A stretch of 24,000 bases of DNA from Methanomassiliicoccales archaeon. Lineage in GTDB: Archaea; Thermoplasmatota; Thermoplasmata; SG8-5. A model generated the notes under the pieces. The model made no database searches. It saw only the letters and a program-made list of their open reading frames with translations, and was not told where the DNA came from. The number at the start of each line of letters is the position of its first letter. Positions within the stretch are counted from its first letter, which is position 1. Made by a program: the position numbers and the translations under genes. The DNA is taken from contig DAOVXH010000004.1 of the NCBI GenBank assembly GCA_030636255.1, forward strand, positions 1 through 24,000, given 5' to 3'. Below, one piece after another: positions 5,360 through 22,637 of this stretch.

Positions 5360-5510
5360 ATCTGTGCCCCTCCGTTACTGTACCCATACTTCATTTAACC
5401 GTTATAAACATTTTGTAGGTTAAGGCCAGAGAGAGCCTATAGAGTGTATATATTTTATAAAACACAGTTTTTTATATTCCTCATATATCTCTATTACAAA
5501 AGGTGATGAC

Positions 5511-6128: not shown

Positions 6129-6137
6129 GGAAATTCC

Positions 6138-7712
6138 ATGCACTGGGTTGACGTTTACGCAGAAAAGCTCTTAGAGCAAGGTAAGTCACATATTATTGAG
6201 AGTGGAACCTCTATTTCCGGACAGCCGCATCTTGGCAGCGCCGAGGACATAATAATCTGTGATGGAATTCTGAAGGCCATAATCGAGAAGGGCGGCCAGG
6301 CAAAAGCAATCTGGGCCATGGATGACATGGACGGCCTTAGAAAAATACCAGCTCAACTTCCAAAGGAATTTGACAAATATCTTGGACAGCCAGCTTATGT
6401 TTTACCATGTCCGGACGGATGCTGCGGTTCTTTCAGAGAGCATTTTACAAGACCATTCCTTGAAAGCCTGGAAAGAATAGATGTCAAGCCAGAGCCAATA
6501 TCTGTGGCGCAGATGTACCAGGACGGAAAGTATGATGAAGTTGTCACAATCGCACTGACCAGGGCCCAGGAAATTAAAGACATCATGAAAGAGGTTTCAG
6601 GTAGCGAACGAGATGATGACTGGCTGCCGTTCTTTCCCATATGTGAGAACTGCGGAAAAATACTCAGTACAAAGGCCTATGAGTTTGACGGCAAGATGAT
6701 AAAATACACTTGCAAGGGCGGCATTGCCGGTAAAAATTTGATTCCTGGCTGCGGTCATGAGGGAGAGGCAGGCATTCGACAGGGCAAGCTTCCATGGCGT
6801 GTGGAATGGGCAGCAAGATGGAGTCATTTGGGGGTAACCTGCGAGCCAATGGGCAAAGATTTAATGGCTGCCGGAGGGACCTATGAAACAGGAAAGGCCA
6901 TTTGTGAGAAGATATTTGACAGTCCAGCGCCGATGCCAGTACCCTATGAGTGGATAGTCATAGGCGGCGGAAAAAGACTTGGAAAATCTGCTGGCACAAT
7001 TCTAACAATTGGCGAGATGATTGACATTATCACTCCAGAAATCGCCAGATACTTCTTTTTCAGAACCAACCCTGCCAGCCACAAGGAGATTGACTTCGAG
7101 CTGGCAATTCCCAAGCTTGCCGAAGAGTATGAGATTGCCGAGAAAATTTACTTTGATATTGATACTGGATTACCGGAAAAAGAGCTTGACGAAATGAAAA
7201 GAAAATACGAAGTAGCTCAGTTCCAAGGAATACCTGAAAACTTCAGCCAGGTATCTTACTCGCATTTAATTTCAACAGTTCAGACAGCCCAGGATTGGGA
7301 CCATATCTTGAAGAAACTGGCCAGAACTGATGATTTAAGCCAGATGACACCGGAGCATGAGCGTCGCCTGAAAGAAAAAGTTCAGGCTGTAAGAACCTGG
7401 CTTGACACCCACGCACCAGAAAACATGATTTTCCAGCTCCAGATGGAGCACCCGAATGTGGAAATTACCCCGGAGCAAAAAGAAGTACTGGCCACACTTT
7501 TATCCAAGATGGGAAGCATAGAGTGGACTGCGGAAAATGTCCACAGCAGCATTTATGATACTTCCGTGGAATCAGAAATAAAGGCTGGCCAGATGTTCAA
7601 ATTAATTTACCAAATATTCCTGGCCCGAAGCAAGGGCCCCAGACTGGGACATTTACTGGCATCGTTGGAAAAGGATTTTGTGCTTGAAAGAATAAAGTAT
7701 TTTTCGGCTTAG
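6138..7712 (+). CDS. lysK: Lysyl-tRNA synthetase, class I (archaeal type)
   Basis: MHWVDVYAEKL...SGTSISGQPHLGSAED carries the HIGH-like element. Also present: GKLPWRVEWAARW, EPMGKDL and a KMSKS-like GKRLGKSAG. It is collinear with the methanogen LysK sequence as I recall it. The start is 9 nt after the gfcR stop, preceded by GAGGAAA. Confidence 0.9.
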   Translation: MHWVDVYAEKLLEQGKSHIIESGTSISGQPHLGSAEDIIICDGILKAIIEKGGQAKAIWAMDDMDGLRKIPAQLPKEFDKYLGQPAYVLPCPDGCCGSFREHFTRPFLESLERIDVKPEPISVAQMYQDGKYDEVVTIALTRAQEIKDIMKEVSGSERDDDWLPFFPICENCGKILSTKAYEFDGKMIKYTCKGGIAGKNLIPGCGHEGEAGIRQGKLPWRVEWAARWSHLGVTCEPMGKDLMAAGGTYETGKAICEKIFDSPAPMPVPYEWIVIGGGKRLGKSAGTILTIGEMIDIITPEIARYFFFRTNPASHKEIDFELAIPKLAEEYEIAEKIYFDIDTGLPEKELDEMKRKYEVAQFQGIPENFSQVSYSHLISTVQTAQDWDHILKKLARTDDLSQMTPEHERRLKEKVQAVRTWLDTHAPENMIFQLQMEHPNVEITPEQKEVLATLLSKMGSIEWTAENVHSSIYDTSVESEIKAGQMFKLIYQIFLARSKGPRLGHLLASLEKDFVLERIKYFSA

Positions 7713-7767
7713 CTGGTTCAAAAAGTTTAATATGAACCTATCAATACCCGCAAAATGCGTAACGGCT

Positions 7768-7813
7768 CTCGACAAAATATTGTCGAGGCTGCGTGGAATG
7801 CAAAGCATTCCAC
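7768..7813 (+). other. Two adjacent perfect stem-loops between lysK and tRNA-Gln
   Basis: CTCGACAA-aata-TTGTCGAG (7768..7787) and GTGGAATGC-aaa-GCATTCCAC (7793..7813). Neither is followed by a T-run. Function unknown. Confidence 0.5.
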
Positions 7814-7856
7814 TGGCCCCAAGTCTATTCGGCCATTCGTGAACTCATAACCTCAT

Positions 7857-7928
7857 AGCCTTGTGGTGTAGCGGCTATCATGGGAGACTCTGGATCTCTC
7901 GACTCCAGTTCAAATCTGGGCAAGGCTA
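7857..7928 (+). tRNA. tRNA-Gln (anticodon CUG)
   Basis: Manual cloverleaf. Acceptor AGCCUUG pairs perfectly with CAAGGCU. Anticodon stem is GGAGA/UCUCU and the loop is CU-CUG-GA. The variable region is 4 nt. T-stem is UCCAG/CUGGG with loop UUCAAAU. Discriminator is A and no CCA is encoded. A1:U72 plus A73 is the archaeal tRNA-Gln pattern. Confidence 0.9.
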
Positions 7929-7948
7929 TTTAATTATTTTATTATCTG

Positions 7949-7976
7949 AGCCTTGCCCAGATTTAAGAGGAATCGC
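7949..7976 (-). repeat. Inverted partial copy of the tRNA-Gln 3' end (T-arm 3' half plus acceptor strand)
   Basis: 7949..7964 (AGCCTTGCCCAGATTT) is the exact reverse complement of tRNA positions 7912..7927 (AAATCTGGGCAAGGCT). Weaker similarity continues for about 11 nt: cgaTTCCtcTT versus cgaCTCCagTTc. The two arms are separated by a 21-nt AT-rich spacer. Confidence 0.8.
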
Positions 7977-8038
7977 TTGCGAGACGAATAATCAAGAGAA
8001 ATCCTTATAACATAATCCCCTATGCCAGAACTGATAAC

Positions 8039-9703
8039 ATGGAGCAGCCAAAAGACTTCATCAGGGACATTGTGGCCGAAGACAATAAAACCGGCAAGTT
8101 CAAAGGTAGAGTGCATACCAGATTTCCTCCAGAGCCTAATGGATATCTCCATATTGGGCATGCCAAGGCTTTCATGCTGAGCTATGGTGTTGCCAAAGAG
8201 AATAACGGAAAATTCAATCTTAGATTCGACGATACCAATCCAGTCAAGGAAGAAACCGAATACGTGGACGGAATAATCGCCGATGTCAAGTGGATGGGAG
8301 CGGACTTTGAGGACCGTTTGCTGTTTGCTTCTGACTATTTTGGACAGTTATATGATTATGCCGAGGATTTGATAAAAAAAGGCAGGGCATATATTGATGA
8401 CCAGACACCCGAGGAAATGAAATTAAATCGGGGCGACTTCGAGAAGCCAGGCAAAGATAGTTCATTTCGAAACAGGTCAGTTGAGCAAAACCTTGGTTTA
8501 TTCCGACGCATGAAGGCCGGAGAATTCGCAGACGGTGTAAGGGTGCTTCGAGCCAAGATTGACATGACACATCCCAATATGAACATGCGTGACCCTGTAA
8601 TATACAGAATTCTCCATGCCAGTCATCACAATACCGGGGATGAATGGTGCATTTATCCAATGTATGATTGGGCACATGGGCTTGAGGATTCAATTGAGGG
8701 CATAACCCACTCACTTTGCGATGTTTCATTTGAGAATCATCGACCGCTTTATGACTGGTTTCTGGATCAGCTGGGGGTCTATCATCCGCAGCAGATTGAG
8801 TTCGCCAGACTCAATATGACCTACACTATCATGAGCAAGCGCAAGCTGCTGGTTCTGGTGGAAAATGGTCATGTAAAGGGCTGGGACGACCCCAGGCTGC
8901 CAACACTTCTGGGACTGCGAAGGCGCGGTTATACTCCACATTCAATTCAGGACTTCCTGAACAGGGTAGGCGTGGCCAAGAAGGAAAATTGGATAGCCAT
9001 CGAGCTTTTAGAGCACTGCATCAGGGAGCATCTGAACAAGATTGCTCCGAGATATATGGGTGTTCTTGACCCTCTGAAGATTGTAATTACCAATTTGCCA
9101 GATGGCCATGAGGAGTTCATGGAGGCCATTAACAATCCAGAGGATGAGAGTGCCGGCACCAGGCAGATTCCTTTCTCCAAGGAGATTTACATTGAAAGAG
9201 CAGATTTCATGGAAGAGCCAGTGAAGAAATTTTTCAGGCTTGCTCCAGGCAGGGAAGTACGGCTTCGATATGCCTATTTCATGACATGCAATGATATTGT
9301 GAAAGATGACGCTGGCAATATTATCGAGCTGCATTGCACAGTGGACCCGGAGACAAAGGGCGGCAATGCCCCTGACGGCCGAAGGGTAAAGGCCACAATG
9401 CACTGGGTCAGCGCAAAACATGCCATTGATGCCGAAGTTCGATTATACGATAAATTATTCACTGTGGAAAACCCACTGGCAGAAGATGGGGTCTTTGAGA
9501 GCTATGTTAACAAGGACTCACTGGAAATCCGGACGAACTGCAAGATTGAACCGGCTGTGAAAGAACTTGGTATTGAAGATAAAATTCAGTTTGAGAGGAC
9601 TGGATATTTCTGTGTTGACAAGGACACTACGCCTGAGAAGATGGTTTTTAATCGGACTACTGGGTTGAGGGATACCTGGGCAAAAGTGAAAAACCAAAAT
9701 TGA
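8039..9703 (+). CDS. glnS: Glutaminyl-tRNA synthetase (bacterial-type GlnRS)
   Basis: [20 protein letters not shown] holds the HIGH motif. Also present: [45 protein letters not shown] (KMSKS), [20 protein letters not shown] and the C-terminal [14 protein letters not shown]. It is collinear with E. coli GlnRS as I recall it over the whole length, including the GlnRS-specific C-terminal anticodon-binding domain. Confidence 0.92.
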
Positions 9704-9951
9704 TTTTCAGTCCAACATAATATTTCTCAAAAAATCTAGCTAGTGTATTGATAATGATTGTTGAACGCAAAGCGTTCGACCACGACATGGCATCAAATAT
9801 ATACAAAATTTAATGTCGTACTGCTCACAATAATCTACTGGCAATGGTTGGATGCGAGGACAAAATATAAACAGATAGAGTATCCGACATGATTGAGCAA
9901 TTTCTCAACAATCGCAATCAAAAATTCCGCAATCGCATGGCATTTAGCAGC

Positions 9952-9999
9952 GGATTGCGGAGAGATACCTGGGCGAAGGTTCAGAAACAGCAAAAGTAA
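9952..9999 (+). pseudogene. Relic of a second glnS 3' end (last ~15 codons plus stop)
   Basis: gga ttg cgg aga gat acc tgg gcg aag gtt cag aaa cag caa aag taa encodes GLRRDTWAKVQKQQK*. The intact gene ends [13 protein letters not shown] (9661..9703). Differences in the conserved block are mostly synonymous third positions. Weaker similarity (F.NR) lies just upstream, inside a 36-codon ORF at 9889..9999. Confidence 0.55.
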
Positions 10000-10032
10000 T
10001 ATATCATTATCTTCATGTAATCAATTGTGTGG

Positions 10033-13000
10033 ATGAAGAGAAATTATGTAGCCTGGATATGTGCGTTTTTGATGCTCAGCAGCGTGTTTGTTGGATTGCA
10101 AGTAAATGAAAATGCTGAAGCCAGGATAGCTGAGGGAGATGGAGTATTGTATACACCTCATGCGCCAATTAGAATAGATTCGGATGCGGATTTTCCTGGG
10201 ATTGCGTCTGGAGGTGACGGAAGTGCTGGTTCTCCCTGGATAATAGAAAATCATGAGATAAATGGCACGGGTCATGGATATTGCATTTACATTGGGAATA
10301 CTACTGAGCATTTCATTGTGAGAAATAGTTTTGTACACAATGCAGATGGATTACTAAGTTGGCCGTATTATACAGATTCAGGATTGACATTATATAATGT
10401 TCAAAATGGAGTAGTCTCAAACAACACCGCAGCTTCAAACCTTCGTCAAGGATTTTTGCTCCACACCTCCTCCAATAACACTATTGTTGACAACAATGTA
10501 TCTTCATTAAATTTGGATGGTATTTTACTCTACTCCTCCTCAAAAAACACCATTAGAAATAATACTGCAACTTTTAACAATGACTTTGGAATTTGCCTTA
10601 GCCTCTCCAACAATAATACAATATCAAGCAATAATGTGTCATTCAACAATAACAATGGCATGTACATAGTCTCTTCCACAAACAACACATTTTCAGGTAA
10701 TTATGTTGCATCGAACAATGACAATGGTATGCACCTAATTTCTTCGAGTAATAATTCTCTTGCTAATAATTCTATTATGAACAATGATGATTATGGAATC
10801 TTAATTGAGACCTCAATCAATAACACTCTAACTCATAATACCATGTACATGAATCTTTTGAGGTGCTTAACCCTCCGGTTTTCAAATAGCAACTATATAA
10901 CGAATAATAATTTATTTTCAAACAACGGTTGTTCTATTATGCTTGATTCGTCTTATAATAATTCAATTTATCATAATAACATAATCAATAGTGCTTTCGC
11001 CTTTGATAACACAGGATTTAACTCCTGGGACAATGGCTATCCGGACGGCGGCAATTACTGGAGTACATTCAACACCAGCCTTTATGTTGGAAACGAGAGC
11101 TTCTTCGCCTCTGGCGGCGAGGAGGGTTTCTATCTGGATCAAAACGAGAACACACCAGGATTCCAGGGTATCCAGACATTACATGAGATCAGATATGTTT
11201 GGGACAATGACTGGTCCTTTGTCTATGTATTGGTCGAGGGTGTAGATTTTGATATAAATATTACCACTGGCTGGGTTCAGGTTTACTGGGGAGGATTTGT
11301 TCTAGGCGATCAGCTCTATAGTGAATACACTTGTCTTGTAAACCCACCAGACCTATTCTGGGGACCAAATCAAGATATTCCTGACTCTGACTTTATTTAT
11401 GATATGCCATACCCAATTTTGGGAGGAACCAATGAGGATTCATATCCACTTGCTTACCCAATCATCAACGGAAGGTTCCAGCGTGGCCCAATAAGGATAG
11501 ATTCCAATGCTGATTTTGACCAAGCTCACGGTGTAATCAATTGGGATTCTGGAGATGGAAGTATTGACAATCCCTGGATAATCGAGAAATGGGATATTAA
11601 TGGAACTGGCCATGAATTTTGTATTTATGTTGGGAATACTACGGACTATTTTGAGGTGAGGGGCAATAGTTTTCACAATGCAAGTGGATTCGGGGTCATA
11701 ATACGCAATTGCTATTATGGAATAATTCTTGACAATGAAATAATTTACAATAATAACAATGGAATTTACTTACCGCTTTCATTTTATATCACAATTCAAA
11801 ATTGTAAGATATTATACAATAGCAATTCAGGCATTTATTTGAATGAGGCTTCTCGTCTAATCACAATTGAAAATAACACTATAAGTTACAATGCTGGCAA
11901 TGGTATTGAAACTTTTTATTCCTGGGGCAATAAAATATATAACAATGTGATAAGTAATAATGACGGTTCAGGTATCGGAACTTTTGCAGGTAGTAAAAAT
12001 ATAATAAAACAAAACACTATCTCAAATAATCAATATGCTATCGCACTCTTACTTTTTGATGGCAATGGAAGTATAATCAAACAAAACACTATCTCAAATA
12101 ATCAATATGGAATTTATACGGTCTTTTCTTCAAGTAATATTAGTTATTATCATAATAATTTCATTAACAACACCATCCAAGCATATGACGATGGCACCAA
12201 CAATACCTGGGACAATGGCTACCCAGATGGAGGGAACTATTGGTCTGACTATTCCGGTGTTGATTTGAATAGTACACCCTCCCAGGATATACCACCACCA
12301 GACGGAATCGGAGACACACCATATACAGACATTGACGGAGTGGCTGGAACCATAGACAATTATCCATTGATGGAGCCCTGGATGCCGCCCCCTATACTCA
12401 CCTATGACATAGACCTCACAACAGGCTGGAACCTAATCTCCCTGCCCCTTGCCCAGTCTGATGAAGATATTTATTCTGTATTATCCAGTATTGACGGTGA
12501 CTGGGACAGAATTAAGCTCTATGATTCACAGAGTGTGAATCACTGGTTATCGAGTTCCATATACAGTCCAGACCTGAGTGAAATTGACCAGTTGAACCAC
12601 ACAGTAGGCATCTGGATACACATGGTGAATGCAACAACTCTCACTGTGGAAGGAATAGAACCAGTGTTCACAAATATAACATTATATGCTGGTTGGAATC
12701 TGGTAGGCTATCCATCATTGTTTCCTGAAACTGTGGCAAATGCCCTCTGGGGAACTGGAGCAGACCGGGTGGAGGTATGCGACCTTGAAGAACCAGGCTT
12801 GATAAAAGAGGTGGGGCCAACTTATATCATGCAGCCAGGAGAAGGGTACTGGGTTCATGTTCCGGCTGATACTGTCTGGACAACTGAAAAGACTGTAGGA
12901 AATCCTCAAATTGTTGTACGAGGGGACAACCCTGACACTGGCGGTTATGAATACATTAGATTTAACAACACAGAACCAGTAAATGGTGATACAATTTCAA

Positions 13001-14442
13001 TAACAGCTACAATCCAGAATCTTGGTGGAGGTTCTGCAGCGGTTGATGTGAAATATTATGATGGTGAGGAAATATCGAGCCAGCTCATTGGAACCGATTA
13101 CTTGTTATTACCTGCACAGGGTGAAATAGATGCTGTAATAAACTGGAAAGCAAGTCCTGGTGGAGCTCACTCAATTATTGTTACAGCAGAGGTAAATGCC
13201 ACATATGCACTTGTAAATGATATTTATGACCCGTATCTTCCTGACAATCGAAACAGCACAGCCATCTTGGTGATACCAAAAATATTACTGGTTGACGATG
13301 ACAACCACACAAATGACTATTCCCTAGACGACACAACCTCGTATATGAGAGACGCCTTGAGAAATGCAAATTTTGAATATGACTTTGTAATTGTTGGGCC
13401 TGGTGACGGACCTGGCTATGATTACGGTGATTATCCCCTTGAGGATTATGACATCGTTATATGGATGACTGGCCATACCGAGACAAACACCCTCACACGA
13501 CCACTGAACCCTGCAGAACCAATGGCCACCAGAACCGATGATGTCGCAAACCTTATGAGATTTCTTGATGGGGAGTCCACAGGAGGAAATGGCGGTAGTT
13601 TGTGGCTGATTAGTGAGGGATACTGGGACGATGCTATCGGAGACCCGGTACACGAACCATTCTTTATGAATTACTTGCACCTGAGCGATATTGCCACAAC
13701 ACCCATGCCATCCCTAAAGAACACACTCCCCACAGAACTCTGGGGCAGGGAGAATCATACAATTACCAATAACTATGCAGATAATCCAATAAACACCGAG
13801 ATTAAGGTTGCTGGAACCGATGCGGCCTGGTCATGGGCCTCCGGTGATTTTCCGGACACCAGTGCTATTGCTCTCAATAATAGCGATAATTCCCGGGTTT
13901 ATGGTGTGACCTATGATTCAGATGATTATCCAGCTGACCCAATAGCAGATTCAAGAATATTTGTCCAGACCTGGGATTTTTCAAGGATACAGGACACTGC
14001 AACGCAGGCACAGTACGCCTATAGAGCTTTATTTTGGCTTGGAAACTATTCTATGATGTTCGGAAGAGATGTTGCATTATCTCAGCAGACTATTGAGCCA
14101 ACCACTGTTACAATTAATGAAACAATAAACATAACTGCCATTGTTCGAAACAACGGGTTCAATGACTATAATTCTTCCCAAGGCGATAATCTGTGGTATC
14201 TTCTGAGGATTACAGATGAATATAACAATGATATTACCGTGCCACATCTAGAGCGGATAGATTATTTGGGAATTGGGTCTAACAATGAGTTTATTATTAA
14301 TCATCAATTTACTTTTCATGAGATTGGAAACTTCACTGTCTGGATAGAAGTGGACCCATACAATTACATTATTGAAACCAATGAACTCAACAACCAGGCA
14401 TCTGAATATTACAATACATTTGAAATTGAGGTTTTGCCCTAG
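10033..14442 (+). CDS. Large secreted surface protein: two right-handed beta-helix (PbH1/NosD-like) modules plus C-terminal CARDB-like domains; probable glycoprotein/adhesin
   Basis: Track ORF 10027..14442 (GTG). ATG 10033 gives MKRNYVAWICAFLMLSSVFVGLQVNENAEA, a signal-peptide-like N-terminus. Long runs of ~22-24-aa N/S/I-rich coils are present (NNT.., SNN.., G.Y/I). A duplicated head motif PIRIDS.ADF...PWIIE..(I)NGTGH.(Y/F)CIY(I/V)GNTT and tail motif WDNGYPDGGNYWS occur twice. Two CARDB-like segments carry ..I.A.(I/V).N.G.. strands. Several dozen N-x-S/T sequons are visible by eye. I found no C-terminal TM or PGF-type anchor. Confidence 0.7.
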   Translation: MKRNYVAWICAFLMLSSVFVGLQVNENAEARIAEGDGVLYTPHAPIRIDSDADFPGIASGGDGSAGSPWIIENHEINGTGHGYCIYIGNTTEHFIVRNSFVHNADGLLSWPYYTDSGLTLYNVQNGVVSNNTAASNLRQGFLLHTSSNNTIVDNNVSSLNLDGILLYSSSKNTIRNNTATFNNDFGICLSLSNNNTISSNNVSFNNNNGMYIVSSTNNTFSGNYVASNNDNGMHLISSSNNSLANNSIMNNDDYGILIETSINNTLTHNTMYMNLLRCLTLRFSNSNYITNNNLFSNNGCSIMLDSSYNNSIYHNNIINSAFAFDNTGFNSWDNGYPDGGNYWSTFNTSLYVGNESFFASGGEEGFYLDQNENTPGFQGIQTLHEIRYVWDNDWSFVYVLVEGVDFDINITTGWVQVYWGGFVLGDQLYSEYTCLVNPPDLFWGPNQDIPDSDFIYDMPYPILGGTNEDSYPLAYPIINGRFQRGPIRIDSNADFDQAHGVINWDSGDGSIDNPWIIEKWDINGTGHEFCIYVGNTTDYFEVRGNSFHNASGFGVIIRNCYYGIILDNEIIYNNNNGIYLPLSFYITIQNCKILYNSNSGIYLNEASRLITIENNTISYNAGNGIETFYSWGNKIYNNVISNNDGSGIGTFAGSKNIIKQNTISNNQYAIALLLFDGNGSIIKQNTISNNQYGIYTVFSSSNISYYHNNFINNTIQAYDDGTNNTWDNGYPDGGNYWSDYSGVDLNSTPSQDIPPPDGIGDTPYTDIDGVAGTIDNYPLMEPWMPPPILTYDIDLTTGWNLISLPLAQSDEDIYSVLSSIDGDWDRIKLYDSQSVNHWLSSSIYSPDLSEIDQLNHTVGIWIHMVNATTLTVEGIEPVFTNITLYAGWNLVGYPSLFPETVANALWGTGADRVEVCDLEEPGLIKEVGPTYIMQPGEGYWVHVPADTVWTTEKTVGNPQIVVRGDNPDTGGYEYIRFNNTEPVNGDTISITATIQNLGGGSAAVDVKYYDGEEISSQLIGTDYLLLPAQGEIDAVINWKASPGGAHSIIVTAEVNATYALVNDIYDPYLPDNRNSTAILVIPKILLVDDDNHTNDYSLDDTTSYMRDALRNANFEYDFVIVGPGDGPGYDYGDYPLEDYDIVIWMTGHTETNTLTRPLNPAEPMATRTDDVANLMRFLDGESTGGNGGSLWLISEGYWDDAIGDPVHEPFFMNYLHLSDIATTPMPSLKNTLPTELWGRENHTITNNYADNPINTEIKVAGTDAAWSWASGDFPDTSAIALNNSDNSRVYGVTYDSDDYPADPIADSRIFVQTWDFSRIQDTATQAQYAYRALFWLGNYSMMFGRDVALSQQTIEPTTVTINETINITAIVRNNGFNDYNSSQGDNLWYLLRITDEYNNDITVPHLERIDYLGIGSNNEFIINHQFTFHEIGNFTVWIEVDPYNYIIETNELNNQASEYYNTFEIEVLP
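12001..12109 (+). repeat. Near-identical 37-nt direct repeat, 72 nt apart (one beta-helix coil duplicated)
   Basis: ataataaaacaaaacactatctcaaataatcaatatg (12001..12037) versus ataatcaaacaaaacactatctcaaataatcaatatg (12073..12109) differ at 1 position. Both encode IIKQNTISNNQY. Confidence 0.85.
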
Positions 14443-16247: not shown

Positions 16248-17015
16248 ATGATTGATGACGTAGAAGTAACAAGAAAGATTTTCGAACGCTACTCCAGAGA
16301 ATTTCTGGACAATACCCAGGTGGATGTAATTATTGCCGGGGCTGGCCCAGCCGGTCTCACCGCTGCAAGAATACTGGCCAAAGCCGGGAAAAAAATCTTG
16401 ATTGTTGAAAGAAAGCTTGCCCCAGGAGGAGGAATGTGGGGCGGTGGAATGAATTACCCGGTCATTGTCATACAGCCAGAATCAAAACATCTCCTTGATG
16501 GAATCAATATACCAGTTCAGGATGCTGGTGATAATTATTACACTGCAGATTCAGTGGAATGTGTTGCAAAACTTTTGGCCAGCGCAATCGATGCTGGTGC
16601 AAAGGTCTGGAATGCTGTTACAGTCACAGATGTCATGATACGCCAGGAAAAAGTTGCTGGCGTTGTCATAAATTGGACCGGCGTGGACCTCACTGGAATG
16701 CATGTTGACCCATTGACCATCGGTGCAAAATATGTTCTTGATGGTACAGGCCATGATGCCAGCGTCTGCGAGGTTACCCACAGGAAGGCTGGAAAATTGA
16801 ATACACCTAGTGGGGGTGTTGAAGGAGAACGCTCCATGTGGGCCGAAGTGGGTGAGCAGACTGTGGTCGAAAATACCAAGGAAATATACCCTGGCCTCTA
16901 TGTTATTGGCATGGCTGCTAATGCAGTAATGGGAGCCCCAAGAATGGGGCCCATATTCGGCGGCATGCTCCTTTCCGGAGAAAAGGCAGCCAGGGAAATC
17001 CTGGAGAAATTATAG
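16248..17015 (+). CDS. thi4: Thiamine thiazole synthase, Thi4 family (archaeal type)
   Basis: DVIIAGAGPAGLTAARILAKAG is the FAD/NAD fold. Also present: ERKLAPGGGMWGGGM, DGTGHDASV and GMAANAV.GAPRMGPIFGGMLLSG. The start is set at ATG 16248, with GGTG 6 nt upstream; the track start GTG 16239 is possible. The stop overlaps the convergent radical-SAM gene's stop by 6 nt (TTATAG). Confidence 0.85.
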   Translation: MIDDVEVTRKIFERYSREFLDNTQVDVIIAGAGPAGLTAARILAKAGKKILIVERKLAPGGGMWGGGMNYPVIVIQPESKHLLDGINIPVQDAGDNYYTADSVECVAKLLASAIDAGAKVWNAVTVTDVMIRQEKVAGVVINWTGVDLTGMHVDPLTIGAKYVLDGTGHDASVCEVTHRKAGKLNTPSGGVEGERSMWAEVGEQTVVENTKEIYPGLYVIGMAANAVMGAPRMGPIFGGMLLSGEKAAREILEKL

Positions 17016-18071
17016 ACCCAGTTCCTTGGCAACTTCCCTTGCAGTATCTATGAAGCAATAATCACCATTTACACGCTGGAGCCAGCATGCTCCACGGCAC
17101 AGGTCTAAAACGTCACAATCCTTGCAGTCCTGGGGCACATCATCGAAGAGTGTTTCCCTGAATCGGGTGAAGCCCTTCCACCACATGTCTGCTATTGGAA
17201 CTTCCTTGACATTTCCTTCTGAGTATAATTCCGGGAACTCAAGTGCCGGACATCCCATAACCTCTCCGTCTGCCATTATTGTGAATGTGTTCCATCCGCA
17301 ACCGCAGAAGAATGGTGGCCTAATAACGCCATCCAGTGGTCCAAGATAACCGTGACCTTCGCAAACTTCGATATTGTGGCCTTTCTGCTTCATCTCATAG
17401 ACATACTTGAAGACCTTCTTCATTATCACAGGGTCATTCTTCATGCCAACTGCTCGGCCTTCTGGAACTATTGTCTGAATCCTGTGGCGCATACTTCCAT
17501 GTGCTACGCAATCATCGTAAATCAGAGGTATCTCGTCCACATTTTCTTCCATGTAAACTGTTGCTGTTGCAACCACTGGAAGTTCCATCTCTGTGAATAT
17601 ATCCAGGGCTTCCATGGCCTTTGCATAGGCTCCCTTTGTTCCCCTTATCTTGTCGTGATTGTCCCTGTAACCGTCAAGGCTCACCATAACGGAGAATGGC
17701 TCTGCTTCTTCAATCATCTTTCTGTTTTCTTTGATTGCAAATCCATTGGTAACAAAACCAGTCATTATGCCGCGTTCTTTGCATCGCTGCATGACCTCTG
17801 GAAAGTCAGGCCTTAGTATGGCCTCTCCACCGGTCAAGGACAGTACCTTGGTTCCCATCTCTGCCAGTTGGTCAATAACATTCAATATCTGCTCGGTTGT
17901 GAGCTCGTCGGGCTTTGCCTCGTCAGCAGCTGTTCCACAATGCGGGCATTTGAAATTACACTTGTGTGTGGCAATCCACTGGACATAAAATGGTGCCAGT
18001 GTTTTGTTCTCAAACTGCGTTCTGTATTCTTCCTCTGCTCTTATCTGTAAAGGTCTGTCATCATCTTTCAT
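17010..18071 (-). CDS. Radical SAM/SPASM-domain enzyme 2 (no N-terminal peptide-recognition domain); putative peptide maturase
   Basis: The radical SAM motif is C-NFK-C-PH-C, about 38 residues from ATG 18071. The full SPASM pattern is CGWNTFTIMADGEVMGC ... CKDCDVLDLCRGAC ... C. ATG 18071..18069 lies 1 nt after the stop of the upstream radical SAM gene, with GAGAGGGA upstream. The track's longer start at 18146 would overlap that gene by 74 nt. Confidence 0.8.
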   Translation of the reverse strand: MKDDDRPLQIRAEEEYRTQFENKTLAPFYVQWIATHKCNFKCPHCGTAADEAKPDELTTEQILNVIDQLAEMGTKVLSLTGGEAILRPDFPEVMQRCKERGIMTGFVTNGFAIKENRKMIEEAEPFSVMVSLDGYRDNHDKIRGTKGAYAKAMEALDIFTEMELPVVATATVYMEENVDEIPLIYDDCVAHGSMRHRIQTIVPEGRAVGMKNDPVIMKKVFKYVYEMKQKGHNIEVCEGHGYLGPLDGVIRPPFFCGCGWNTFTIMADGEVMGCPALEFPELYSEGNVKEVPIADMWWKGFTRFRETLFDDVPQDCKDCDVLDLCRGACWLQRVNGDYCFIDTAREVAKELGL

Positions 18072-18072
18072 A

Positions 18073-19473
18073 TTAATCCCTCTCTTCAATTTTTTCATTA
18101 GCTTCAAAATCATTGACCATCTTCTGCCAGCGCTGGTCAACGTCATACTTTCTTCCCATCTTTTTCATGGTTGAGGTCCAGATGGATTCTTCAAACAATC
18201 TCTTGTGCATATCACAGAATATATCAGGTGCTCTTATGGTATCATGCTTCGAGTATGCATGCATTCTGCATCCTCCAGCACAATAATAGCGCCACTCACA
18301 GTCAGAACATTCCTCTATGGTCTCCACGCTTGTTTCACGCCATTCATGGAACACCGAAGAATTATCCCAGATGTTTTGAAGGCTATCTTCTCTGATATTG
18401 CCTGCAAGAAACTCTGGAAGCTGTGATGCCTGACATGGATAGATGCTTCCATCGGAGTCCAGGCTGATACTGTTTATTGCAGCACCACAATTATAGCCAT
18501 ATTTAGTAATGACTGGCCCTGCGGCTGACTTCTTATTGTCCAGAGGAACATCTGAGTTTAATTCCCTGCTGGTCTTGTCAATATCCCACCATGCATTCAG
18601 CAGCTCCAATACAGTGGGCTGGCTGCTGTTCTCGCCCTTCCCGATGGCCATCAATGGAGGGCTTTTCACACTGGCAAGGCCGTACTTGTTTGCCACCCTC
18701 ACCAGATGATCCAGTTCATTGCAGTTTTTATTGGTAACCACCGCATTGATATATGGATTGATGCCAGCATTAACAAAGTTCTCTATGGCCTTAATGGCAG
18801 CATCATAGGAACCTTTTCCTCGCATCTCATCGTGTATCTCTCTTGGACCGTCAAGGCTCACCTGTACAGAGCAGAAATTGTTCTTGATTCGCTCTGCCAT
18901 CTCCTCATCTACCAGAATACCATTTGTGGCCATTATTAGTGATATGTCATACTTTTGAGCATGCGCCACAATATCCCAGAAATCCTCCCGCATCAGAGGT
19001 TCACCGCCACTAATGGCGATTGTCTGGTTATCTCCACCCATTTCATGGAACTGATCAATGAAATTGAAAATCTCCTCGGTGGTAAGCTCATTTTCCATTT
19101 CCTGGCCTGCGGTAATGTAGCAGTACTTGCAACGTAAATTACATCTGTGGGTTATATGCATCCAGGCCATCTGAATGGTTATGTCTGGTGGGGTAGCCTC
19201 AAAGGTCACTCCAGAGCCTTCAAGCATTCCCATTCCTTTCAGGGTTTCAATAAGAGCTCCCAGGTCCTTCAATAGTTCCTCTTTTGGCAAATCATACTTC
19301 TGGGCCAAAGAAGAAACAATGTCATCCAGGGAATTCTGGCCGTCCATCATCTCAATGGAAAAAATTGCCTTTTCGAAGGCCACAAACCAATCTGGCTTAT
19401 CCGGGTTCAGGCACAGAAATAAATCCTCGTAATTCTTTATGACTATATCGTCAATAACTTTTGGTCCATTCAA
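18073..19473 (-). CDS. Radical SAM/SPASM-domain enzyme 1 with N-terminal PqqD-like (RRE) extension; putative peptide maturase
   Basis: C111-NLR-C-KY-C is the radical SAM motif. The SPASM pattern is CGAAINSISLDSDGSIYPC ... CSDCEWRYYCAGGC ... C. Residues 1..~95 (..FSIEMMDGQNSLDDIVSSLAQKYDLPKEELLKDLGALIETLKGMGMLEG) resemble PqqD/RiPP-recognition elements. The start is TTG 19473, with GGAGAGGG ending 5 nt upstream. There is no in-frame ATG or GTG after the upstream TAG. Confidence 0.8.
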   Translation of the reverse strand: MNGPKVIDDIVIKNYEDLFLCLNPDKPDWFVAFEKAIFSIEMMDGQNSLDDIVSSLAQKYDLPKEELLKDLGALIETLKGMGMLEGSGVTFEATPPDITIQMAWMHITHRCNLRCKYCYITAGQEMENELTTEEIFNFIDQFHEMGGDNQTIAISGGEPLMREDFWDIVAHAQKYDISLIMATNGILVDEEMAERIKNNFCSVQVSLDGPREIHDEMRGKGSYDAAIKAIENFVNAGINPYINAVVTNKNCNELDHLVRVANKYGLASVKSPPLMAIGKGENSSQPTVLELLNAWWDIDKTSRELNSDVPLDNKKSAAGPVITKYGYNCGAAINSISLDSDGSIYPCQASQLPEFLAGNIREDSLQNIWDNSSVFHEWRETSVETIEECSDCEWRYYCAGGCRMHAYSKHDTIRAPDIFCDMHKRLFEESIWTSTMKKMGRKYDVDQRWQKMVNDFEANEKIEERD

Positions 19474-19503
19474 TTCATCCCTCTCCTAAATATTTTAAAT
19501 ATC

Positions 19504-19550
19504 AAAAATAAATATTAAAAGGGGCTTGAGTGTAAAACACCCACCGCCCC
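19504..19550 (-). terminator. Possible attenuator/partial terminator between precursor ORF and maturase genes
   Basis: Minus-strand RNA is GGGGC-GGUGG-GUGU-UUU-ACAC-UCAA-GCCCC, followed by UUUUAAUAUUUAUUUUU. The hairpin is imperfect, but oligo-U runs alone can terminate archaeal transcription. Confidence 0.3.
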
Positions 19551-19579
19551 AATTTTATGTTTTTTATTCTCTAACGAGT

Positions 19580-19699
19580 TTATGGCTTGACACCAATGAA
19601 AATTCCGTATTTCATTCCAATGTCTGTGCATGGTGGTTTGCCGCCGTTGCAGCCGTTGTAACCACCGGCATTCTCGCTCTGATTTACTATATCGCTCAC
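19580..19699 (-). CDS. Small Cys/Gly-rich peptide, candidate RiPP precursor (39 aa; not in ORF track)
   Basis: The start is GTG 19699..19697, with GGAGGTG (19711..19705) 5 nt upstream. The stop is TAA at 19582..19580. Translation is MSDIVNQSENAGGYNGCNGGKPPCTDIGMKYGIFIGVKP. It lies directly upstream of, and co-directional with, the RRE-bearing radical SAM gene. An in-frame ATG at 19753 would give 57 aa. Confidence 0.6.
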   Translation of the reverse strand: MSDIVNQSENAGGYNGCNGGKPPCTDIGMKYGIFIGVKP

Positions 19700-19763
19700 T
19701 TTTTCACCTCCAACATATTTCGTGGATTGTAGGTTCAATCCTGTCCCTTGCATTGCCCTATCG

Positions 19764-19771
19764 TATATAAA
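19764..19771 (-). promoter_or_regulatory. TATA box (TTTATATA) for the peptide ORF
   Basis: Minus-strand TTTATATA matches the consensus archaeal TATA element. It predicts a transcript start near 19740. That leaves a ~40-nt leader containing the GGAGGTG site. Further TATA-like AT-rich boxes lie at ~19790..19835. Confidence 0.45.
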
Positions 19772-19842
19772 GCTGCCGAAAAATTACTATATAAATTTAA
19801 CTATGATTTGAGCGTGAAATAGAGTATATTATATAAAATGTA

Positions 19843-19867
19843 AAAATAGCCCTCGGAATGCTATTTT
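19843..19867 (-). terminator. Stem-loop plus T-run downstream of the ABC permease gene
   Basis: AAAATAGC-(9 nt loop)-GCTATTTT is a perfect 8-bp stem. On the minus strand it runs into CTATTTTTAC, 23 nt after the permease stop. Confidence 0.4.
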
Positions 19868-19889
19868 ATTTCGTATTTTCATATAATAA

Positions 19890-20783
19890 TCATGCGCCCC
19901 ATTTCGCCAGGTTGCCGTCCCTCTCTGCCTTGTGCATGCCTTTCCTGAACAAGAATATGCCTATTGACAGGAATATAACAGTAAATATCAATAACATGAA
20001 AATATCATTCATTATTATGGGCATGTCCGTGGCCTGATTCATTGCAGGGTTCAGAAGACGCCTGAAGGCATCCAGTGCATATGTATGTGGGAATATTCTG
20101 GACAGGTAGTACATGGGAGGAAATACCTCAAGATATACCTCAGGAGGGAAGAACGAGCCAGAGACAAGGCCAGCAAATGTTGCAAAGAACCAATTAACAG
20201 GTTCAGCGCCACCCTTCACATCCAATAATAGGAAAGTACTGGCTGAGATAAGTCCCAGACCACTTATGGATAAAATTGCAAGTAATAGGACAGTAATCAG
20301 AATAAAAATATTAGATGGCACGGCAATTATGGCACCAAGTAGGGAAACCCCAACAAGAATGTAAAACAGGATATTGAGCGTGGAGGAAATCAGTGCCCTT
20401 ATAAGTACCACAATCAGATAATTGTAGAACTTAACTGGTGATGATAGAATAATCTCCAGCCAGTTATTGAAATATGTCTCGGAAATTACACTACGCACCG
20501 CTATGAGACAAACATTTGCATATGCAAAGAAGGCCACACCAATAAGAACGAATGTAAAGAAATCACCGCCGTACTCTGCAAAATAAGTTGCATCTGGCTG
20601 TATCACATAATTTAGAAAGAAAAATGACAGTATGGCCACAATGGATGAAATAGTTCCAACAATGGCACTTATCTTGAACCTCATCCATAGATAATAATGG
20701 CGGGTGTACATGGCCCTAACAAAGTCTAGCTTACCCCTGAATGACATTGAGGTCTTAACTGGAACAATTGCCTTTTCGCTCAT
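19890..20783 (-). CDS. ABC-2 type transporter permease
   Basis: The 297-aa protein has about six hydrophobic helices and an N-terminal cytoplasmic segment (..FVRAMYTRHYYLWMRFK..) typical of ABC-2 permeases. Its start overlaps the ATPase gene's stop as ATGA. Confidence 0.75.
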   Translation of the reverse strand: MSEKAIVPVKTSMSFRGKLDFVRAMYTRHYYLWMRFKISAIVGTISSIVAILSFFFLNYVIQPDATYFAEYGGDFFTFVLIGVAFFAYANVCLIAVRSVISETYFNNWLEIILSSPVKFYNYLIVVLIRALISSTLNILFYILVGVSLLGAIIAVPSNIFILITVLLLAILSISGLGLISASTFLLLDVKGGAEPVNWFFATFAGLVSGSFFPPEVYLEVFPPMYYLSRIFPHTYALDAFRRLLNPAMNQATDMPIIMNDIFMLLIFTVIFLSIGIFLFRKGMHKAERDGNLAKWGA

Positions 20784-21808
20784 GCCTCACCTCTTTCTTT
20801 CATTACCTGAACAAATATATCATTCAATGTTGGAGTTTGTATATCCACTCTATGAACCTTGCAAAATTCTTTTGAAATGTCAATAATATGTGGAGCTAAG
20901 CGATGCATTTCTTTGCCATAAATCGCAAGTCTGCTGGCCCCAGGAATGATGTCTTCGGGGTCTTTTTGAAACTCAACATGAAGTATCAAATCCAGTCCAA
21001 TTAGCTCTTTGGCCAGGTCTTTGATATTGCCAGATATATCAAGCAATAACAAATCATCTGATAACTGTTTTCTAAGTTCCTCGGCTGTCCCAACCTTCAC
21101 TATCTGGCCCTTGTCTAGAATTACCACTCTATCGCATACCTTCTCTGCTTCCCACAGATTATGTGTTGCCAGGACCACAGTAGTACCTCTCTTGGCCAAA
21201 TTTTCCCTGATAAAATTACGAATAAATTCACTTGAATAGGGGTCAATATTGGTTGTTGGTTCATCAAGCAGATAAATCGGCCTATCAATCATTAAGCATC
21301 TGGCAAGGTTGAGCTTTTGTCTCATTCCTGCACTGAGATTTTCAGTGAACTCTTTCTTTTTGTCACCGAGACCTACCGTGTCCAGTGCCTTGTCGGCTGC
21401 CTTAATTGCCTCATCATGTCTCAGGCCCATGAAAACGCCCCAGAACAGGAGCAGCTTGTCAAGAGGATACTTGTAATCAAAAATGATCCAGCCACCGGCC
21501 CTCAGGAAATTGCAGGAGCAGCGCACTTCATGCCTATCTTCCACAATATCAAGACCATTAACAAGAACTTTACCACTATCTGGGTACAGGAACCCGGCCA
21601 TAACCTTCAACATGGTAGTCTTGCCTGCTCCATTTGGCCCCAAAATACCAATAACCTCGCCTTTTTTCACCTGAAGATTAACACCATCCAGGGCATCAAT
21701 ATATTTTCTCTTGTCCTTGCTCATGCTCTCCTTAAAATTATCCAGCCAGTTATTTTCTGGATCTTTTTTCGGATACCGCTTGTGAAGCCCTCTTATGTCT
21801 ATCATCAT
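20780..21808 (-). CDS. ABC transporter ATP-binding protein
   Basis: Walker A is GPNGAGKTT, the signature is LSAGMRQK, Walker B is IYLLDEPT and the H-loop is ATHNL. The start is set at ATG 21808 (MMIDIRGLHKRY), a typical ABC N-terminus. The track's GTG 21895 start would leave only 39 nt to the divergent gene. The region between Walker A and the signature is divergent; I could not recognise a Q-loop Gln. Confidence 0.8.
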   Translation of the reverse strand: MMIDIRGLHKRYPKKDPENNWLDNFKESMSKDKRKYIDALDGVNLQVKKGEVIGILGPNGAGKTTMLKVMAGFLYPDSGKVLVNGLDIVEDRHEVRCSCNFLRAGGWIIFDYKYPLDKLLLFWGVFMGLRHDEAIKAADKALDTVGLGDKKKEFTENLSAGMRQKLNLARCLMIDRPIYLLDEPTTNIDPYSSEFIRNFIRENLAKRGTTVVLATHNLWEAEKVCDRVVILDKGQIVKVGTAEELRKQLSDDLLLLDISGNIKDLAKELIGLDLILHVEFQKDPEDIIPGASRLAIYGKEMHRLAPHIIDISKEFCKVHRVDIQTPTLNDIFVQVMKERGEA

Positions 21809-21934: not shown

Positions 21935-22321
21935 ATGACTGATGAAATTGAATATCTAGCCAAACGCATAAGGGATCGACCGGACAATGTTCTTTCGGTT
22001 TCAGATTTAGCTTCCGAGCTACAGCTTCCAGAATTGCAGGTGGCCAGGGATATCAAGGATATTGTCAAGCGCGACGGATTCTTTGACATAGGAGACCACA
22101 GCATCATGTTCACTGGAAATACCGAGCTGGCAGCCTTCGAGATATTCAAGACCGCAGCAGCAAATATCACATTTGACGAGTTCATCAAGCACCAGGAACA
22201 GCCACACCTTCTCATGAGACTCTCCAGGGACAGAACAGTGGCATGCAAGAACAATCCAGAGAAATTACTTCAGGATGCAATAAAAGAGAAGGAAATCAAT
22301 AGGGGGAATACAGTTAGCTAG
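21935..22321 (+). CDS. Small hypothetical protein with probable winged-helix HTH (candidate regulator, divergent from the ABC/radical-SAM cluster)
   Basis: This is the 128-aa C-terminal part of track ORF 21317..22321. The upstream 206 codons are antisense to the ABC ATPase. NVLSVSDLASELQLPELQVARDIKDIVKRDGFF resembles DeoR/HTH_11-type helix-turn-helix segments. ATTTATAG at 21902..21909 would fit a near-leaderless transcript. Confidence 0.45.
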   Translation: MTDEIEYLAKRIRDRPDNVLSVSDLASELQLPELQVARDIKDIVKRDGFFDIGDHSIMFTGNTELAAFEIFKTAAANITFDEFIKHQEQPHLLMRLSRDRTVACKNNPEKLLQDAIKEKEINRGNTVS

Positions 22322-22454: not shown

Positions 22455-22637
22455 TTGGTAGGACTTGATGAAACAATTATTGGCACACTCAGAGGTTCCA
22501 TATATGCAAAAGCCGATAAAATGGAGCAGACTGTGGCCATAGAGTTCATAGAGTCCAAGGTTGAAGAGAAGATAATTGACAAGGAAATTGGAGATGAACT
22601 TTCCAGGCTTGTTAGAAAATATTGTACCTACCGATAG
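22455..22637 (+). CDS. Small protein of unknown function; minimal TTG-start version of a probably longer basic protein
   Basis: Track ORF (TTG start). The same frame is open from 22284 and encodes a very basic tract (..RKRGAKAYKRPQKKVQTPKKRRLNLRK..). That stretch has no ATG, GTG or TTG. See the C8-tract finding. Confidence 0.4.
   Translation: MVGLDETIIGTLRGSIYAKADKMEQTVAIEFIESKVEEKIIDKEIGDELSRLVRKYCTYR

Follow-up and report, generated by a model that had tools for sequence, protein, structure and literature searches.

A candidate archaeal peptide-maturation cassette pairing a putative tyramine splicease with a CteB-like radical SAM enzyme

A 24,000-nucleotide stretch of a Methanomassiliicoccales archaeon (GenBank assembly GCA_030636255.1, contig DAOVXH010000004.1, positions 1 to 24,000; the whole stretch is hereafter referred to as the window) carries on its minus strand, at 17010-21808, a small, rare cluster that very probably lets this deep-sea archaeon produce a chemically modified peptide of 39 residues and export it. 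According to the open reading frame (ORF) table of the window, the cluster comprises five co-directional genes, encoding an ATP-binding cassette (ABC) ATPase, a membrane permease, a short precursor peptide, and two radical S-adenosylmethionine (SAM) enzymes, referred to as rSAM1 and rSAM2. The gene set and the peptide are conserved, and the cofactor motifs of the enzymes are present. The interpretation favored here, with a confidence somewhat better than even, is that the cluster is a maturation cassette for a ribosomally made, post-translationally modified peptide (RiPP), in which rSAM2 would act as a tyramine splicease related to PlpX, rSAM1 as a thioether-forming enzyme, and the ABC pair as an exporter. 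The five-gene arrangement, an ATGA overlap between the two ABC genes, and a 1-nt gap between the two radical SAM genes had been described in an initial annotation of this DNA, and all three are confirmed in the sequence: the ATPase/permease junction reads GGC-ATGA-GC, and the rSAM1/rSAM2 junction reads TAA-T-ATG, the ATG lying 1 nt past the rSAM1 stop.

Bacterial spliceases cut tyrosine from the peptide backbone and thereby generate a protease-inhibitor warhead. Their target motif is X-Tyr-Gly (XYG), with a loss of 135.06 Da (PMC11414181, PMC11626197, PMC9811515), and they have been mined via YG-rich precursors adjoining genes for radical SAM enzymes with a SPASM domain (rSAM-SPASM; PMC10849128). 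A separate Y protein resembling the RiPP recognition element (RRE) characterizes the type I systems, and binary systems without Y are known (PMC11414181). Spliceotide clusters were found in bacterial and archaeal genomes by an earlier study, as cited in PMC11626197, and the end products from native hosts were still elusive in 2022 (PMC9811515). In archaea, rSAM-RiPP clusters have been widely predicted and are uncharacterized, lanthipeptides being the only archaeal RiPPs characterized (PMC12144867), in agreement with the initial annotation, which had named predictions and no characterized product.

The precursor gene (19580..19699, minus strand) comprises 39 codons from a GTG start and encodes (M)SDIVNQSENAGGYNG-CNGGKPPCTDIGMKYGIFIGVKP, including 8 Gly and 2 Cys residues. 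A Shine-Dalgarno-like GGAGGTG (19705..19711, minus strand) is located 5 nt ahead of the start codon, and the same element is present in the related contig L013. Gene callers place the start at an ATG farther upstream, which gives 57 aa; the 39-codon reading is nevertheless correct because of the 5-nt spacing of the Shine-Dalgarno-like element, because relatives of the peptide (P0129, P0130, P0132-P0134, and P0138) have an ATG exactly at MSDIVN, and because a 1-nt deletion in L013 just upstream breaks the 57-aa frame. Relatives of the precursor are called as proteins in 15 cases, and across 13-15 of them G16, C17 (codon at 19649-19651, minus strand), C24 (19628-19630, minus strand), G28, and Y31 are invariant and F34 is near-invariant, giving the pattern G-C...C-x-[DE]-[IV]-G-x-x-Y-[GA]-x-F, in which the residue following the invariant Tyr is Gly or Ala in all relatives. 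Peptides of this design are located upstream of rSAM1 homologues in L013 (...GCNSNKPPCTDIGMKYGIFIGVLP; rSAM1 identity 86%), L015 (...HGCCVSSCTEVGPKYGVFLGT; 46%), L010 (two copies, ...HGCCTSSCTEVGPKYGVFIG...; 43%), L011 (...GGCGNCVEVGSIYAAFLPIPE; 38%, a paralogous locus in the metagenome-assembled genome (MAG) of the window), and L100 (...TGCGCVEVGSIYAVFDPQPV; 38%).

The gene arrangement is more than chance, because the cassette of peptide, rSAM1, and rSAM2 recurs in at least six other contigs (L010, L011, L014, L015, L097, and L100) and in L013 and L100 all five genes, the ABC pair among them, are found in the same layout. Whereas the window, L013, and L100 have the ABC pair attached to the cassette, L010, L011, and L097 lack it; it is therefore an accessory module. 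The RiPP pathway proposed in the initial annotation, consisting of a short precursor, an RRE-bearing rSAM-SPASM enzyme, and an ABC exporter, is supported, with the refinement that the exporter is not constant.

When 1.84 billion representative proteins were searched with a profile, only six genuine precursor clusters emerged, all of 39-57 aa. The precursor family is thus real and rare, and small ORFs of this kind are often uncalled. The other matches in the search were rejected as spurious, P0137 being a translated satellite repeat and P0139 a eukaryote-like repeat protein. The latter (221 aa) is a secreted protein with four repeats of ...AEAEPQWGGCGGNGGPPCWKKDALPEAEPEVV..., superficially similar to the GCNGGKPPC of the window peptide, and is probably an unrelated repeat precursor. 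A comparison of substitution rates (dN/dS) between the window and L013 was set aside as uninformative, since the whole intergenic block is approximately 91% identical, and conservation at distant loci was used instead. The suggestion that the small ORF arose by chance and that both enzymes target a protein encoded elsewhere or a non-peptide substrate is effectively refuted. It could draw on the peptide having no family in Pfam or NCBIfam and being uncalled by NCBI on the MAG contigs L004 and L005; however, the peptide is conserved beside rSAM1 homologues of 38-86% identity despite divergent DNA, its ATG starts and Shine-Dalgarno element are conserved, and the profile search returns just short proteins of the same design, so that the 39-codon Cys/Gly-rich ORF singled out in the initial annotation is a real gene. 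Furthermore, neither enzyme falls inside a non-peptide family of NCBIfam: all matches are far below their cut-offs, including AhbD (156 vs. 500), anSME (124 vs. 349), and NirJ-type heme maturases (140-150 vs. at least 500), and the best matches are peptide maturases.

The 98-kb JGI contig L097 (421-612, minus strand, and 9755-9952, plus strand) encodes three rSAM2 paralogues (P0164, P0169, and P0174), and one precursor there has the same ...NSALHG leader end as L010 and a different core (GPVYQMYYGWFGGPCPDP...). This suggests, at the level of sequence, a leader/core boundary directly after the Gly of NSALHG.

rSAM2 (17010..18071, minus strand; 353 aa) consists of a radical SAM domain with the motif CNFKCPHC and a full SPASM domain, both recognized by Pfam (Radical_SAM and SPASM), without an RRE. 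The cysteine patterns in both enzymes are CxxxCxxC, Cx(10-12)Gx4C, Cx2Cx5Cx3C, and a further Cys, confirming the full SPASM domain previously noted for the second enzyme, and the radical-SAM/SPASM motif is invariant in the rSAM2 family alignment. This family comprises approximately 45 clusters of 38-69% identity, from MAGs labeled Thermoplasmata, Methanobacteriota, Diapherotrites, Elusimicrobiota, Omnitrophica, and Nitrospirota. Their genomic contexts were obtained from look-ups of the encoding contigs and one metagenome scan, and the neighboring ORFs were tabulated. At 16 loci, an rSAM2-family gene (43-69% identity) adjoins an ORF with single or repeated X-Tyr-Gly or X-Tyr-Ala motifs. In the bacterial and DPANN loci, XYG is repeated within Pro-rich spacers: nine YG in L099 6332-6856 ([KM]YG; EKYGPGP.../PMYGIEP...), six P[LVM]YG(V/I)E in L104 2918-3877, four PMYG (VPMYGVQPP) in L106 2879-3859, three [LM]YGVEPPPE in L105 1289-2701, three RPLYG ((I/M)RPLYGV) in L101 and L102, IIRPMYGVEPMYGVPMPAPEYGVG in L184 4544-4975, two HPMYGVETP in L185, and IIRPMYGVEPMYG in a Diapherotrites MAG. 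In the window, the corresponding motif is Lys30-Tyr31-Gly32 (codons at 19604..19612, minus strand), which is the likely splice site because X-Tyr-Gly is the hallmark of tyramine spliceases. GMKYGIFIGV in the window and IRPLYGVYP in L101 resemble the core of PlpA3, AVAAMYGVVFPW, and an engineered splice tag, PIRPGYGLPI. The initial annotation had stated that the peptide fits none of the precursor signatures it listed; this holds for the SCIFF and C-terminal Val-Tyr types but not for the spliceotide X-Tyr-Gly, a class that was absent from its list.

The XYG-repeat proteins of the bacterial and DPANN loci are secreted or membrane proteins of 140-470 aa with a common N-domain and three to nine repeats, and they are unrecognized by Pfam and NCBIfam. 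At these loci, a 151-aa tetratricopeptide repeat (TPR) protein often follows the rSAM2-family enzyme.

The top NCBIfam matches of rSAM2 are TIGR04133 (162 bits) and TIGR04103 (156 bits, E = 1e-45), the latter being nif11-class maturase 3, which we take to be PlpX (IPR026482; PMC11002830); the match to SkfB (TIGR04403, 94 bits) is below the 300 cut-off. In a tblastn search of annotated plasmids (PLSDB), rSAM2 scored highest against the GDL-motif maturases (TIGR03913, 176 bits), followed by an Aureibacter enzyme (175 bits), the Nostoc "nif11-class peptide radical SAM maturase 3" (162 bits), and PqqE (102 bits). A TIGR04103 member from a Nostoc plasmid, annotated by PGAP, was used as a stand-in for PlpX. 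The GDL-motif, Aureibacter, and Nostoc enzymes are 48% identical among themselves, the rSAM2 family is the next-best group to these three plasmid-borne enzymes, and the BLAST ranking is reciprocal. The precursors of these annotated relatives carry LYG, PYG, LYA, or MYA: ...SIALYGLPPELF in the Nostoc Nif11 peptide, MSTAPIRMLYGGAM and ...SIKPYGVAI in the Azospirillum DUF1843 peptides, and MYQVLYAAGI, MYLPMYAASI, and MIIQPYGAGI in Aureibacter. Seven alignment columns are common to 44 rSAM2-family members and the three canonical enzymes and are rare in 21 outgroup rSAM-SPASM proteins; these shared-derived columns comprise CxxxCxxC-G, G241/G244 in GYLGPL, R251, G273-C-P275, and R333. With the 21 outgroups, neighbor-joining placed the canonical enzymes and the rSAM2 family in an exclusive split in 89 of 100 replicates, in a run that gave a numerical warning; a rerun with more outgroups gave lower support. 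The affinity of rSAM2 to spliceases is hence suggestive and not proven at the level of sequence, and the association with precursors is the stronger argument.

The Aureibacter tunicatorum plasmid pAT1 (L183 2192-2905) encodes three tandem DUF1843 peptides with LYA, MYA, and PYG at one N-terminal position, and Y-Ala and Y-Gly therefore interchange there; the radical SAM enzyme of this locus, annotated just as "radical SAM protein," shares 48% identity with the TIGR04103 member. Radical SAM fusion proteins of approximately 33% identity (L112-L127, 770 aa) were set aside as a different family; these proteins of approximately 700-800 aa combine an rSAM2-like N-part with a long C-terminal extension and are common in freshwater and sediment metagenomes.

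rSAM1 (18073..19473, minus strand; 466 aa, TTG start) comprises a PqqD-like RRE, a radical SAM domain with the motif CNLRCKYC, and a seven-Cys SPASM domain (Cx12Gx4C...Cx2Cx5Cx3C...C). The three domains are matched by the Pfam families PqqD, Radical_SAM, and SPASM, and the PqqD match (PF05402, residues 38-83) scores 30.9 bits, above the 23.4 cut-off. The AlphaFold2 (AF2) model has a mean confidence (pLDDT) of 92, and residues 11-80 of its N-domain form three strands and three helices. Foldseek ranked CteB first, over the full length including the RRE (TM score 0.68-0.74), followed by SkfB, SuiB, anSME, and TigE, and the nearest PDB sequence is likewise CteB (5wgg, 7e-32). The CxxxCxxC motif, the seven-Cys SPASM domain, and the RRE that the initial annotation had recognized are thereby substantiated. 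The close relatives of rSAM1 are few, seven at 38-99% identity, after which identity falls to approximately 30%; a GTDB genome scan with the rSAM1 alignment gave, among the matches listed, generic rSAM-SPASM relatives of 24-37% identity. The radical-SAM and SPASM cluster Cys residues are invariant in seven family members (37-86% identity), and rSAM1 is thus under selection as an active enzyme.

The presence of rSAM1 follows that of cysteine in the peptides. At loci with an rSAM1-type gene, all nine peptides have at least two Cys, and in the eight that have a Y[GA] site, Cys lies just N-terminal to it. XYG-repeat regions without rSAM1 lack Cys in seven of seven cases, the Cys residues of L104 and L106 being confined to the N-terminal signal-like segment. 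The peptide beside a third rSAM1-type gene (rSAM1b) in L011 has two Cys and neither YG nor YA (...HGEECVVAPGGVICIPINIIY). This Cys-only peptide and the locus associations together support an assignment of Cys to rSAM1 and of Tyr-Gly to rSAM2. Given the nearest relatives CteB, StsB, and SkfB, the most economical guess, and a weaker one, is that rSAM1 forms thioethers.

The L011 locus (4823-10478, in the MAG of the window and also in L012) is a paralogous multi-cassette locus. rSAM1b is encoded there on the minus strand (452 aa) with its own 43-aa peptide gene at 6482-6613, and is adjoined by a truncated rSAM2 at 6788-7552 (254 aa), which is devoid of the radical-SAM half; a complete cassette of peptide, rSAM1, and rSAM2 follows.

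The best NCBIfam matches of rSAM1 are StsB (NF045574, 192 bits vs. a cut-off of 625) and MftC (186 vs. 265), and the SCIFF maturase TIGR03974 (129 vs. 425) and PapB NF047865 (125 vs. 340) are likewise below their cut-offs. The second rank of MftC, a match to PqqE, and a C-terminal half of the peptide that is unusually conserved for a RiPP core would be in line with a precursor of a small redox cofactor, similar to PQQ or mycofactocin, rather than a secreted peptide. This origin is nonetheless very improbable: the MftC score is below its cut-off and that of PqqE is only 114 vs. 381, the precursor ends in ...GVKP and shows neither a C-terminal Val-Tyr nor a Glu-x3-Tyr, no MftB/D/E/F or PqqB/C/F genes are present in the window or the related loci, an ABC exporter is attached at three loci, and the L010 precursor is duplicated with variable tails, several cassettes occurring per genome.

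Several observations weigh against the favored interpretation, in which rSAM2 would splice and rSAM1 would form thioethers. rSAM2 is 31-33% identical to the TIGR04103 member and the GDL-motif maturases and reaches no curated threshold (TIGR04103, 156 vs. 725; TIGR04133 slightly higher), and when 97 outgroups were used together with a safe distance cap, the split uniting it with the canonical enzymes was recovered in only 26 of 50 neighbor-joining replicates. L103, L107, and L110 (40-50% identity) have no XYG-rich ORF directly upstream. Y-A replaces Y-G in the archaeal relatives L011, L100, and L097, and no record of splicing at Y-A was found in the spliceotide literature searched. For rSAM1, thioether formation is weaker, being suggested by a correlation and a similarity in fold, and CteB-like folds also serve C-C, C-O, and other chemistries (SuiB, TigE, and anSME). 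The two precursor Cys could possibly form a plain disulfide, as proposed for Rheinheimera spliceotide cores, and no leader peptidase gene is encoded in the cluster.

The low identity, the sub-threshold scores, and the weak grouping with the large outgroup would suit a RiPP cluster without splicing, in which rSAM2 modifies the Tyr otherwise, by a C-C or C-O cross-link of the cyclophane or the ryptide/darobactin-like kind, and rSAM1 introduces thioethers or another cross-link; the conserved Y-[GA]-x-F spacing makes an aromatic cross-link conceivable. Such a cluster is considered unlikely, as the X-Y-G repeats in Pro-rich spacers match published splicease substrates and the splice tag, every one of the nearest annotated enzyme families goes with XY[GA] precursors, and Phe34 is not kept in the repeat-type precursors, which therefore offer no common cross-link partner.

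A further alternative retains splicing of KYG by rSAM2 but leaves the Cys residues free or in a disulfide, with rSAM1 catalyzing epimerization or another C-H functionalization, or mainly serving as a leader-binding RRE partner of rSAM2, analogous to the Y protein. A disulfide has been proposed for the two Cys of Rheinheimera spliceotide cores (PMC11626197), type I spliceases require a separate RRE-like Y protein (PMC11414181), and the RRE of the present cluster resides in rSAM1 and not in rSAM2. This alternative is nevertheless regarded as quite improbable, since the radical-SAM and seven SPASM Cys of rSAM1 are invariant in its seven relatives, rSAM1 tracks the core Cys even beside a peptide without YG, and rSAM2-family enzymes of bacteria and DPANN archaea function with no rSAM1 neighbor.

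Under the favored interpretation, the precursor consists of a leader of approximately 16 residues (MSDIVNQSENAGGYNG) and the core CNGGKPPCTDIGMKYGIFIGVKP. rSAM1 would bind the leader via its N-terminal RRE and, in the manner of its nearest structural relative CteB, link Cys17 and Cys24 to carbons of other core residues, the resulting thioether bridges (-2 Da each) constraining the peptide. rSAM2 would abstract a hydrogen at Lys30-Tyr31-Gly32, excise the tyramine equivalent of Tyr31 (C8H9NO, -135.07 Da), and rejoin the backbone; being without an RRE, it may have its substrate presented by the RRE of rSAM1, similar to the separate Y protein of cyanobacterial systems. The DrrAB-like ABC pair would export the product or protect the producer. 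A more specific proposal is put forward tentatively and with a likelihood well short of even: the product may be a hybrid archaeal RiPP with an alpha-keto-beta-lysine warhead from a divergent splicease and one or two thioether rings from a dedicated CteB-like RRE-rSAM enzyme, exported by the DrrAB-like pump and acting in cold-seep communities as a constrained inhibitor of trypsin-like serine or cysteine proteases.

Compared with the spliceotide systems (PlpX/PcpX/RhaX), the window system shares an rSAM-SPASM enzyme without an RRE and an X-Tyr-Gly followed by hydrophobic residues (MKYGIFI in the window and AMYGVVF in PlpA3). Its rSAM2 family adjoins YG-rich or repeat precursors, the criterion used to define spliceases (PMC10849128), and the nearest annotated relatives of rSAM2 are the PlpX-type (TIGR04103) and GDL-motif classes. 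By contrast, the window system is archaeal, its enzyme is only 31-33% identical and far below the TIGR04103 cut-off, its leader is not of the Nif11, NHLP, or DUF1843 type, X is Lys, Y-Ala occurs in some relatives, and the enzyme is coupled to a Cys pair and to a further rSAM-SPASM protein that bears an RRE. No separate Y-like small gene is present in the window cluster, where the N-domain of rSAM1 is the sole RRE; this is compatible with the splicease family, because binary systems without Y are known.

CteB/SCIFF and StsB have the same three-domain build as rSAM1 (RRE, radical SAM, and seven-Cys SPASM), CteB being the best PDB match by sequence and fold and StsB the best NCBIfam match, and the substrate of rSAM1 likewise carries Cys that tracks the presence of the enzyme; however, rSAM1 is far below the respective cut-offs, and the window precursor, with two Cys instead of six, shows neither a SCIFF nor a GGG-type signature. 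The maturases of the GDL-motif/DUF1843 "trio" (TIGR03913), the highest-scoring annotated plasmid enzymes to rSAM2, act beside peptides with X-Y-G or X-Y-A, but they differ from rSAM2 in their size of approximately 480-516 aa, their 48% identity to the PlpX class, and the absence of an rSAM1 partner; in their peptides, unlike in the window precursor, a helical DUF1843 domain comes after a site at the extreme N-terminus. The mycofactocin (MftC) and PQQ (PqqE) pathways likewise pair a short, conserved peptide with an RRE and an rSAM-SPASM enzyme, whereas the window cluster scores below the cut-offs, has none of the accessory genes or precursor motifs, and includes an exporter. Apart from DUF1843 in the Azospirillum and Aureibacter peptides, Pfam and NCBIfam gave no family for the precursors of related loci. 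Both enzymes and all precursors of the rSAM2 family stay short of the curated family thresholds, and no splicease-like enzyme coupled to a CteB-like RRE-rSAM enzyme and a Cys pair was found in the literature searched. The cluster follows a general logic that is already known, as is its probable key chemistry; its rarity, archaeal host, and hybrid design set it apart.

Regarding expression signals, a TATA-box-like TTTATATA (19764..19771, minus strand), read by eye upstream of the precursor gene, is a possible archaeal promoter and is likewise present in L013. The CTTTATATAC block and the 45 nt preceding the start codon are kept in L013, while the intergenic DNA around them varies. A scan for sigma-70 promoters and terminators gave counts at the level of shuffled sequences and was discarded, its model being unsuited to an archaeon. 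Between the precursor gene and rSAM1 lies a G+C-rich hairpin, GGGGC...GCCCC followed by TTTT (19517..19550, minus strand), with a folding energy of -21.8 kcal/mol (z = -3.05; none of 200 shuffles folds as well). The hairpin and T-run are also present in L013. It is possibly a terminator or attenuator and may set the ratio of precursor to enzyme transcripts. Cleavage of a double-glycine leader (…AGG|Y) was considered and dropped, because GG is not kept in the relatives and the transporter is devoid of a C39 peptidase domain.

The ABC ATPase (20780..21808, minus strand) is of the DrrA type and comprises 342 aa from the ATG at MMIDIRG; the mechanical ORF extends to 21895, and other starts used by gene callers give 346 or 370 aa. 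It matches PF00005 at 100 bits, with a weak match to DrrA1-3_C, and scores 215 bits against the drrA subfamily TIGR01188, below the 312 cut-off; its homologues keep their position in L013 (89% identity) and L100 (47%). The partner permease (19890..20783, minus strand; 297 aa) has five to six hydrophobic segments and no match of its own in Pfam or NCBIfam, and its L100 homologue (40% identity) carries PF01061 (ABC2_membrane), which suggests a permease of the ABC-2 type. Divergent from the ATPase are two small ORFs, at 21935-22321 (plus strand; 128 aa) and 22455-22637 (plus strand; 60 aa), which are called in all related contigs and may constitute a regulator; they have no significant family match, a PF0610-like N-terminal match being weak (E = 0.036).

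The flanks consist of archaeal housekeeping genes (5S rRNA, tRNA-Gln, class I LysRS, GluRS, Thi4, RDD, MarC, and aIF6), bearing out the initial annotation, which had named four of these (aIF6, class I LysRS, Thi4, and 5S rRNA), and the base composition of the window shows no island signature. The cassette of L010, a relative of 43% identity, lies within approximately 5 kb of a string of genes for S19e, a dsDNA-binding protein, L31e, and aIF6 that is also present in the contig of the window (L010 1115-3017 vs. L001 2982-4921), which hints at vertical inheritance rather than recent transfer. At 10027-14442 (plus strand), the window encodes a probable surface protein of 1471 aa, which contains NosD, right-handed beta-helix, and CARDB domains, and the 5′ end of this gene has the lowest G+C of the window (0.35). 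Proteins identical to those of the window occur on contigs of two MAGs, one being GCA_023140495.1, and the samples behind the MAGs were taken at Site-F, a South China Sea cold seep.

The rSAM2 family also marks a set of XYG-repeat proteins, not yet curated, from Elusimicrobiota, Omnitrophica, Nitrospirota, and DPANN archaea. The cassette is small and directly testable, comprising a 39-residue peptide and enzymes of 353 and 466 aa, with predicted mass shifts of -135.07 Da for the K30-Y31-G32 step and -2 Da for each cysteine. If the interpretation is true, the product would be the first archaeal rSAM-modified peptide with an assignable chemistry and the first to combine splicing with rSAM cross-linking, and it would offer a ketoamide scaffold derived from Lys, a motif that is valued when protease inhibitors are designed. 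Furthermore, the cluster would show how an RRE-less splicease cooperates with an RRE-bearing rSAM partner, and backbone splicing to beta-amino-ketoamides would reach the archaea.

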